From Escherichia coli (lineage in GTDB: Bacteria; Pseudomonadota; Gammaproteobacteria; Enterobacterales; Enterobacteriaceae): a stretch of DNA of 64,000 nt. A model generated the notes under the pieces. That model had not been told where the DNA came from, made no database searches, and was given only the letters and a program-made list of their open reading frames with translations. The stretch lies in the NCBI RefSeq assembly GCF_036507355.1, contig NZ_AP027877.1. One strand, written 5' to 3'. Within the stretch, counting starts at the first letter, position 1. Every line of letters starts with the position of its first letter. Shown piece by piece: positions 3,348-5,137 of the stretch. The position numbers and the translations under genes were made by a program.

Positions 3348-4542
3348 GGAAGGTGCGAATAAGCGGGGAAATTCTTCTCGGCTGACTCAGTCATTTCATT
3401 TCTTCATGTTTGAGCCGATTTTTTCTCCCGTAAATGCCTTGAATCAGCCTATTTAGACCGTTTCTTCGCCATTTAAGGCGTTATCCCCAGTTTTTAGTGA
3501 GATCTCTCCCACTGACGTATCATTTGGTCCGCCCGAAACAGGTTGGCCAGGGTGAATAACATCGCCAGTTGGTTATCGTTTTTCAGCAGCCCCTTGTATC
3601 TGGCTTTCACGAAGCCGAACTGCCGCTTGATGATGCGAAACGGGTGCTCCACCCAGGCACGGATGCTGGCTTTCATGTATTCGATGTTGATGGCCGTTTT
3701 GTTCTTGCGCGGATGCTGTTTCAAGGTTCTTACCTTGCCGGGGCGCTCGGCGATCAGCCAGTCCACATCCACCTCGGCCAGCTCCTCGCGCTGTGGCGCC
3801 CCTTGGTAGCCGGCATCGGCTGAGACAAATTGCTCCTCTCCATGAAGCAGATTACCCAGCTGATTGAGGTCATGCTCGTTGGCCGCGGTGGTGACTAGGC
3901 TGTGGGTCAGGCCACTCTTGGCATCGACACCAATGTGGGCCTTCATGCCAAAGTGCCACTGATTGCCTTTCTTGGTCTGATGCATCTCCGGATCGCGTTG
4001 CTGCTCTTTGTTCTTGGTCGAGCTGGGTGCCTCAATGATGGTGGCATCGACCAAGGTGCCTTGAGTCATCATGACGCCTGCTTCGGCCAGCCAGCGATTG
4101 ATGGTCTTGAACAATTGGCGGGCCAGTTGATGCTGCTCCAGCAGGTGGCGGAAATTCATGATGGTGGTGCGATCCGGCAGGGCGCTATCCAGGGATAATC
4201 GGGCAAACAGGCGCATGGAGGCGATTTCGTACAGGGCATCTTCCATGGCACCGTCGCTCAGGTTGTACCAATGCTGCATGCAGTGAATACGCAGCATGGT
4301 CTCCAGCGGATAGGGCCGTCGGCCATTGCCCGCCTTGGGATAAAACGGCTCGATGACAGCGGTCATATTCTGCCATGGCAGAATCTGCTCCATGCGGGAG
4401 AGGAAAATCTCTTTTCGGGTCTGACGGCGCTTAGTGCTGAATTCACTATCGGCGAAGGTGAGTTGATGGCTCATGATGTCCCTCTGGGATGCGCTCCGGA
4501 TGAATATGATGATCTCATATCAGGAACTTGTTCGCACCTTCC
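3348..4542 (-). mobile_element. IS5 insertion sequence, complete (1195 bp)
   Basis: Termini GGAAGGTGCGAATAAG at 3348 and its inverted copy ending at 4542 (..cttgttcgcaccttcc); encloses the InsH ORF. Confidence 0.95.
3494..4474 (-). CDS. insH: IS5 transposase InsH (326 aa)
   Basis: Protein [37 protein letters not shown].. is the canonical IS5 transposase. Confidence 0.95.
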
Positions 4543-4659
4543 CAAGAGAACGCAACAGCGCACTTGCTTTGCCACAGTTGAATTTTGTGCCGTAACGATG
4601 TGCAAGCATGTAAGCATAAGGAGTCAAGGTATAGCGTGTTACTTAGTTACTCGGATTAA

Positions 4660-5137
4660 CAATCCCAACGTACAGAGCGGCGGATTTACAGAGTCAGCGC
4701 AGTCCCTGCTCCGGCAGTCAGTGGCAGGCGGCGTACTGAAGCAAACCATTATCGATACCGGCATCGGCGATACCATCGGCATGCTGATGTCACACGGCAA
4801 TATTTCTCCCTACATCATGGCGTGGTTGATAACCGTGCTGATCCGTCTGGCAACGGGTCAGGGCGTGGTCTCAGCCATGACGGCGGCGGGGATTATTAGC
4901 GCAGCAATCCTCGACCCGGCAACCGGTCAACTGGTGGGCGTCGACCCGGCGTTGCTGGTGCTGGCAACAGCGGCTGGCTCCAACACGCTGACCCATATCA
5001 ACGATGCTTCGTTCTGGCTGTTCAAAGGCTACTTTGATCTGTCGGTGAAGGATACGCTGAAAACCTGGGGTCTGCTGGAGCTGGTAAACTCCGTGGTTGG
5101 CCTGATAATCGTGTTGATCATCAGCATGATTGCATAA
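4660..5137 (+). pseudogene. 3' fragment of a GntP-family permease gene, 5' part replaced by IS5
   Basis: Only the C-terminal ~150 aa remain (..[71 protein letters not shown]..); the track ORF 4271..5137 reads through the IS5 terminus. Confidence 0.5.

Follow-up and report, generated by a model that had tools for sequence, protein, structure and literature searches.

A stretch of 64,000 nucleotides of Escherichia coli DNA (NCBI RefSeq assembly GCF_036507355.1, contig NZ_AP027877.1), hereafter called the window, carries the 3' end of a gene of the GntP permease family (gntP) at the left edge of a module of lactate genes and close to an insertion sequence (IS) of the IS5 type. The model that we propose, and in which we place good confidence, is that this stub is the left end of a block of Citrobacter DNA, joined to its present neighbour by microhomology recombination at the time of capture, and that IS5 was not the cause of the truncation.

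In this model, about 7.3 kb of chromosomal DNA of the C. freundii complex (about 4727-11995, with gntP from codons 311/312-447 on) would have been captured into a CP4-type island of E. coli, and the left end of the block would have been joined illegitimately, via a 9-bp microhomology, to the 3' end of a YagK/Gp2-type island gene. This joining event would have removed codons 1-310 of gntP, thereby leaving a non-functional remnant. The IS5 lies 181 bp farther left, its transposase-start end being fixed to the intervening spacer wherever this version of the module is known. The DNA on the left side would have been exchanged repeatedly by IS5-associated rearrangement, which in the window would have brought mmuP-mmuM-afuC to the module, and the flanking IS5 and IS1 copies would then have moved the module between islands. 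That the IS5 is without a target duplication would be explained by the different histories of its two flanks. Donor, coordinates, breakpoint and microhomology are directly shown, as are the constant right junction and the variable left flank; the order of events and the enzymology of the capture and of the left-flank exchanges are what we infer from them.

What we describe is a pseudogene that had been annotated before, next to an insertion sequence of a known kind; it is an ordinary scar of horizontal transfer, and the current understanding of IS5, GntP and lactate metabolism is unchanged by our findings. Its value lies in annotation: a gene stub near an insertion sequence is easily blamed on the element, and comparison reveals here the edge of an imported block.

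The gntP remnant and its Citrobacter counterpart

The remnant (4724..5137, plus strand) corresponds to codons 311-447 and the stop codon of a 447-codon gluconate/fructuronate permease gene of the Citrobacter type. Its coding part amounts to 137 codons (4724-5134) followed by the stop, and 69% of the protein is missing; a first-pass annotation, made from the letters of the window alone, had rightly recognized a C-terminal GntP remnant ending at 5137, the length of ~150 codons that it gave being too high. The remnant covers positions 309-440 of the 440 positions of the Pfam profile GntP_permease (PF02447) and matches positions 311-446 of the 447 positions of the NCBIfam GntP equivalog NF007459 with 273 bits, below the cut-off of 647; it is not a full-length GntP of ~447 amino acids (aa) scoring above the family cut-off. 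Compared with an intact GntP, it is devoid of the first 310 codons, of the start codon and of the promoter, and it is a pseudogene, not a paralogous transporter. In the module-bearing E. coli loci, the same stretch is labelled by PGAP as an 'incomplete, missing N-terminus' pseudogene. The N-terminal part is absent elsewhere in the 64-kb window, where the full-length Citrobacter gntP aligned, by tblastn and blastn, only with 4724-5134; no GntP N-terminus provides the in-frame upstream start that would contradict a truncation.

The full-length homologue by which the breakpoint was mapped, as the first-pass annotation had suggested, is the 447-aa gntP of Citrobacter. A contig scan with one genome per species returned 100% protein matches in Citrobacter werkmanii, C. 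youngae, C. portucalensis, C. braakii and further Citrobacter, residues 311-447 of the GntP of these four species being 100% identical to the remnant protein. In the Citrobacter loci, the matching open reading frame is full length (447 aa, conserved start) and stands tail-to-tail with lutC; all ten loci of the C. freundii complex that were compared have a full-length gntP frame. DNA homology to the window starts at 4724 and continues through lutCBA, with 97.2% DNA identity between C. portucalensis A60 and the window over 4724-8177. The core gntP of E. coli (5294 records) has 83-85% DNA identity to the remnant and aligns to the window only across 4724-5137. When the 137-aa stub was used as the query of a protein homology search, all the relatives recovered were themselves fragments (78-239 aa), none of them full length. 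Since homology starts at 4724 and the Citrobacter gene is full length and convergent with lutC, the stub is, on sequence comparison, the left edge of a ~7.3-kb Citrobacter-derived block that occupies about 4727-11995. The first-pass annotation had likewise placed a truncated permease at the left edge of the lactate module.

The spacer and the microhomology junction

Between the end of IS5 at 4542 and the first gntP-homologous base lie 181 bp (4543-4723) of non-GntP DNA, and the remnant does not follow immediately upon the IS5 terminus, as had been believed. The idea that this spacer is diverged gntP was excluded by blastn and tblastn against the full-length Citrobacter gntP. Its right part belongs to a degenerate fragment (4639..4735, plus strand) from the 3' end of a gene of the YagK/'inovirus-type Gp2' kind; in a homologue of 191 aa, the corresponding residues are 157-188. 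The fragment shares 87.5% identity over 32 aa with WP_019078274.1 (tblastn) and 90.9% DNA identity with positions 5001-5066 of an E. coli locus (L005), ending 23 bp short of the stop of the gene. It has stop codons farther upstream and is one base out of frame with the gntP remnant; Gp2-type (YagK/YfjJ-like) homologues sit in other E. coli islands. A reading of the minus strand of the 5' part of the spacer as the continuation of a YagK-like pseudogene found in PD7, which would have meant the simple insertion of IS5 into one gene, was rejected, the Pfam alignment not being extended by it (141.5 versus 141.2 bits). An Rfam search of 3100-5400 gave no match.

When the window, L005 and the C. portucalensis locus L013 are aligned together, the Gp2 identity runs up to 4735 and the gntP identity starts at 4727, so that the crossover interval is the 9-bp microhomology GGCGGCGTA (4727..4735, plus strand) common to the Gp2-type gene and to Citrobacter gntP. 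The same alignment reveals no IS5 end-like sequence and no IS5 repeat in this interval. An illegitimate junction is recognized where two unrelated parental homologies meet with few bases in common and with neither a transposon end nor a recombinase site, and this is the situation at 4727-4735, the recipient parent being represented only by the 91%-identical homologue. In its sequence, the joint of the remnant bears the signature of an illegitimate, microhomology-mediated joining, and it is these 9 bp that the chromosomal capture would have used.

The first-pass annotation had attributed the truncation to IS5. Either an insertion of the element into a full-length GntP-family gene or a deletion running from its end into that gene would make the IS5 terminus the truncation point, and three facts agree with this view: the IS5 is without a target duplication, it stands on the 5' side of the remnant, and the two always occur together in the chromosomal version of the module. 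An IS5-mediated adjacent deletion would, however, leave the IS5 terminus abutting the truncated gntP, whereas here gntP begins only after 181 bp of other DNA, part of which comes from an unrelated gene. Furthermore, the gntP breakpoint shows microhomology with the Gp2-type gene and no IS5 end, and a plasmid version of the module, described below, is truncated without IS5. The truncation point lies at 4724-4735, 181-193 bp from the IS5 end, where gntP is joined to the Gp2-type gene, and we regard its creation by IS5 as highly improbable.

Several observations weigh against the model of a microhomology-mediated capture. A pre-capture recipient, that is an intact Gp2-type gene without the module or without IS5, was not found, and the recipient sequence at the junction is consequently deduced from the 91%-identical homologue. 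At the start of the spacer, 96 bp (4543..4638, no strand assigned) occur only with this IS5/gntP junction: they match no E. coli genome or plasmid beyond the 86 module-bearing genomes and CP056566.1, and the plasmid search with the spacer returned CP056566.1 and a weak 75-bp match in Klebsiella aerogenes, and nothing else. The joint between IS5 and the adjacent CAAG is non-canonical, and an IS5-mediated deletion that halted 181 bp before gntP could have taken place. Finally, the joint between mmuP and IS5 is not derivable by homologous recombination from the arrangement of K-12, in which IS5 is inverted.

The IS5 element

The region 3348..4542 (minus strand) is a complete IS5-family element of 1195 bp, with both terminal repeats and a mosaic sequence. 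We recognized IS5 by a length of ~1.2 kb, 16-bp imperfect terminal inverted repeats (GGAAGGTGCGAA[T/C]AAG) and a single DDE transposase of the IS5 family, and the element has the length, the repeats (GGAAGGTGCGAATAAG and CTTGTTCGCACCTTCC) and the single transposase that are expected. The transposase gene (3494..4474, minus strand) is intact and encodes 326 aa; the protein is matched by the Pfam families DDE_Tnp_1 (2e-34) and DUF772 and by the NCBIfam IS5-family model NF033581 (363.5 bits for a cut-off of 140), and 323 of 327 positions are identical to InsH of K-12. The right inverted repeat (IRR, 3348-3363), at the transposase-stop end, is turned toward mmuP, and the left inverted repeat (IRL, 4527-4542), at the transposase-start end, toward the spacer. 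The IS5 announced by the first-pass annotation is thus present.

The mark of a simple IS5 insertion is a 4-bp target-site duplication, usually YTAR. The flanks of the window copy are CTCC and CAAG; there is no duplication, as the first-pass annotation had stated, and neither side is YTAR. A different copy, an ISKpn26 of the E. coli locus L007, served as the positive control and has TTAG at both ends. The missing duplication concerns the history of the window copy and leaves its identity as an IS5 untouched. Of the earlier proposal of an IS5-mediated deletion instead of a simple insertion, the second half holds, since this is not a simple insertion with target duplication; the first does not extend to the permease, which IS5 did not truncate.

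The length of 1195 bp, the 16-bp terminal repeats and the 326-aa DDE transposase are common to the window element, to the IS5 of E. coli K-12 (the insH copies) and to its relative ISKpn26, and copies annotated IS5 or ISKpn26 in other E. coli are ~99% identical to it. Its identity is 95.6% to the K-12 IS5 next to mmuP and 98.9-99.7% to the copies of the lactate islands. It is a patchwork of single-nucleotide polymorphisms of the IS5 type and of the ISKpn26 type: counted from the transposase-stop end, bases 1-186 are of the IS5 type, the middle alternates, and bases 827-1195 are of the ISKpn26 type. The window copy differs from the K-12 IS5 by this patchwork of two variants, by the absence of a 4-bp YTAR duplication and by its inverted orientation relative to the mmuP flank.

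A constant right junction and a variable left flank

The spacer is present in 86 of 5426 complete E. coli genomes, and in all 86 the IS5 end abuts it at the same base and the same gntP remnant follows, whereas at least six different sequences, the mmuP of the window among them, are directly observed to the left of IS5. These are a YagK-like pseudogene in PD7, a truncated etk next to appA in C 236-04A, the end of hsdR in 13P460A, a truncated gene of the dihydrodipicolinate-synthase family in a CP4-57-like island at ssrA in NCTC9966, and a sequence next to IS1 in Z226-5. Three sequenced left flanks, those of C 236-04A, 13P460A and Z226-5 (loci L002, L004 and L091), end with the canonical TTAG and look like the halves of ordinary IS5 insertions made elsewhere. 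Because the joint between IS5 and the spacer is constant, the left flanks are varied and the IS5 is a mosaic, this joint would be ancestral to the module lineage, the other side of IS5 having been repeatedly exchanged. The IS5 acts as a rearrangement junction, and any IS5-associated rearrangement spared gntP and concerned the DNA to the left of the spacer.

A second version of the module was found in 32 records, 28 of which are plasmids, with 96.9% identity over 7.2 kb. There the gntP stub is shorter by 32 bp at its cut end and borders on higBA, and IS5 is not adjacent to it. In the plasmid loci L006/L007 (7002-7382), the stub stands by the higBA toxin-antitoxin pair, near an ars operon. The plasmid version appears to be an independent capture of the Citrobacter-type lactate module and, as it is cut without IS5, the truncation of gntP at the module edge is not tied to IS5. 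E. coli has gained a Citrobacter lactate module (lutABC, dld and a lactate permease), it would seem on two or more occasions, one in chromosomal CP4-type islands and one on plasmids.

An accessory lactate module consisting of LctP, Dld and YkgEFG is reported on the E. coli plasmid pFec10, where the second copy of ykgEFG is said to be of unknown benefit (PMC7984374). As far as the passages of that paper considered here go, the pFec10 module has the same gene set and order as the plasmid version described above; in these passages gntP does not occur (0 occurrences), and Citrobacter is named only as the possible source of a tetrathionate operon, not of the lactate genes (PMC7984374). The window differs from pFec10 in that its module is the one of the chromosomal islands, with a divergence of about 3% and with the joints of IS5, the Gp2 fragment and the gntP remnant on one side and an IS1 on the other.

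The two versions keep only 127-137 codons of gntP, which might reflect descent from one truncated intermediate, with some trimming afterwards; the gene would then have been truncated earlier, in the donor or in an intermediate replicon, by a mobile element now traceless, the Gp2 fragment being joined later. We consider such a detour unlikely. The versions are 3.1% apart over the 7.2 kb and have different breakpoints and neighbours, which separate captures fit better; the 9-bp overlap of the Gp2 gene with an intact Citrobacter gntP is the prediction of a direct join; and 10 of 10 loci of the C. freundii complex retain the full-length gntP frame.

The whole arrangement of the window recurs, with 13 mismatches in 10.4 kb, in CP056566.1, a 13.4-kb circular contig of E. 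coli RHBSTW-00386. This contig (L089, 13,429 bp), designated a 'plasmid' and without replication genes, is a circular permutation of positions 1-12350 of the window closed via one IS1. Two readings are open to it: a circle or translocatable unit excised through IS1, or an artefact of the assembly of a chromosomal segment flanked by IS1. In Z226-5, the gene order is permuted to IS5-spacer-module-IS1-afuB'-afuC-mmuM-mmuP-mhpT: in the region 18072-32295 of locus L091, the module and IS5 lie between two directly oriented IS1 copies, followed by afuB'-afuC-mmuM-mmuP-mhpT, which looks like an IS1 composite unit.

The joint between mmuP and IS5

The upstream flank of mmuP (3197..3347, minus strand) ends with ...ACGCCTCC, a boundary common to many E. 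coli records. In K-12 and several hundred other records, chromosomes and IncF plasmids, IS5 is found at the identical mmuP-side base (3347/3348). In those examined in detail, which are K-12-lineage chromosomes (L003/L088) and one IncF plasmid (L090), the transposase-start end is turned toward mmuP and the homology to the window ends 16 bp into IS5, past the terminal repeat; in the window it is the transposase-stop end that faces mmuP, IS5 being inverted with respect to K-12. In 121 E. coli genomes the site is uninterrupted and the mmuP flank runs on into mhpT, and this native, IS-free junction is seen in Z226-5. The joining of mmuP to the window-type end of IS5 was not found in any complete E. 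coli RefSeq genome, nor was the reciprocal joint between an IS5 end and the mhpT-side flank, expected from a simple insertion, found among the complete E. coli genomes.

Homologous recombination between the mmuP IS5 of the K-12 type and the island IS5 was rejected as the origin of this joint, the copies abutting their flanks by opposite ends. Recombination between IS copies cannot alter the end that faces a flank, and a second non-homologous event at the same phosphodiester is therefore required. Nor do we accept that the mmuP flank terminates in a degenerate IS5 repeat serving as a transposon end: the anchored alignment surpasses chance only weakly (0.7% of random 20-mers reach its score), and the idea is undermined by the 121 genomes that continue into mhpT.

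Candidate explanations for the joint are a deletion between the identical outer 12 bp of the IRL and IRR of two inverted IS5 copies, a transposase-mediated deletion aimed at the IS end, and two separate uses of a hot spot, though CTCC is not among the targets that IS5 prefers. Could the common phosphodiester, reached by opposite IS5 ends, be the record of a precise, end-defined deletion between two inverted IS5 copies? We advance this idea tentatively and would not bet on it. In two inverted copies, the outer 12 bp of one IRL and of the other IRR would form identical direct repeats, and slippage between these repeats, or cleavage by the transposase at both ends, would result in the loss of one IS5 and of the intervening DNA. 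The flank base would remain unchanged and the IS5 would seem to have been flipped. To our knowledge, such a deletion has not been described as a route of IS5 rearrangement.

Coding capacity of the stub

An open frame of 288 codons (4271-5137) starts within IS5, on the strand opposite to the transposase gene, crosses the spacer and continues into the gntP remnant. At this locus, public gene callers predict 'permease' products of 159-208 aa, one of which is named TRAP transporter large permease; these predictions are likely annotation artefacts.

The remnant might have been kept for a function, either as a small membrane protein made from the 4271-5137 frame or from a shorter start, or as a protection of the lutC terminator. 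The frame is indeed open across the junction, gene callers do predict products from it, the stub protein is 100% identical to Citrobacter GntP, and both module versions retain the stub. Nevertheless, its 137 residues make up less than a third of a multi-pass permease, with a score that stays below the family cut-off, and to PGAP the stub is a pseudogene; no promoter-like site emerged from a scan of 4400-5300; the Gp2 fragment and the remnant are in different frames; and, the transfer being recent, the identity of the protein reflects selection in the donor. A retained function thus appears very improbable to us.

The lactate block and its surroundings

The Citrobacter-derived block consists of the gntP remnant followed by lutCBA, dld and lldP (~7.3 kb). 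Between the convergent gntP remnant and lutC, a 10-bp GC-rich inverted repeat, CCGCTCTGGC...GCCAGAGCGG, followed by TTTT (5146..5176), was read from the sequence and is probably a terminator common to both genes; the consensus scan did not report it. The lutC (5187..5882), lutB (5875..7302) and lutA (7313..8032) genes, all on the minus strand, match respectively Pfam LUD_dom, TIGR00273 LutB (760 bits) and the C-terminal CCG-type (Fe-S) part of NF045670. These three adjacent genes with the family domains form an operon of the LutABC/YkgEFG type and are predicted to serve L-lactate oxidation. They are 97.6% identical to those of C. portucalensis and about 84% identical to the resident ykgEFG of E. 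coli, and its identity to the resident genes makes the module a xenologue and not a duplication.

The dld gene (8107..9852, minus strand; NCBIfam NF008387, 1043 bits) and the gene of the LctP-family lactate permease (lldP, 10240..11793, plus strand; TIGR00795, 402 bits) are annotated as such in the module-bearing loci L002 and L004. In both E. coli versions of the module, dld stands between lutA and the lactate permease gene; it is missing at that position in nine of the ten loci of the C. freundii complex, and a dld of 85% identity is found only in Citrobacter sp. Res13, a distribution that places the true donor lineage outside the species representatives.

Beyond dld, the Citrobacter homology is taken up again across the lactate permease gene and stops at 11995/11996, where the right edge of the block is formed by a fragment of IS1 (11996..12350, plus strand) that starts with the IS1 terminal repeat GGTGATGCTGCCAAC. 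The region 11996-12975 is a pile of IS remnants, made of the first 355 bp of IS1 (92% to IS1A) and then of ~625 bp that include an IS3-family orfA-like frame, after which the K-12-like yafY' resumes at 12976.

The window represents a K-12-like CP4-6 island at thrW (tRNA-Thr, 16400-16475). The left side, with afuC, mmuM and mmuP, matches K-12 at 99.85% identity as far as 3347 and on through the inverted repeat of IS5, and the right side, from 12976, comprises yafY', ykfB to ykfI, thrW, proA, proB and phoE. The flanking genes on both sides are thus common to the window and to the CP4-6 island of K-12, whereas the interior differs, the K-12 segment ykfC'-IS30-perR-ykfA-yafZ being replaced by IS5, the spacer, the module and IS fragments. 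Two further differences from K-12 (L088), at ~20660-20670 and ~25858-25864 of the window, are the absence of the IS1 by which crl is interrupted and that of a stretch of about 750 bp with yafN and yafO, situated between yafP and dinB. In NCTC9966, the same module sits in an island that resembles CP4-57, at ssrA.

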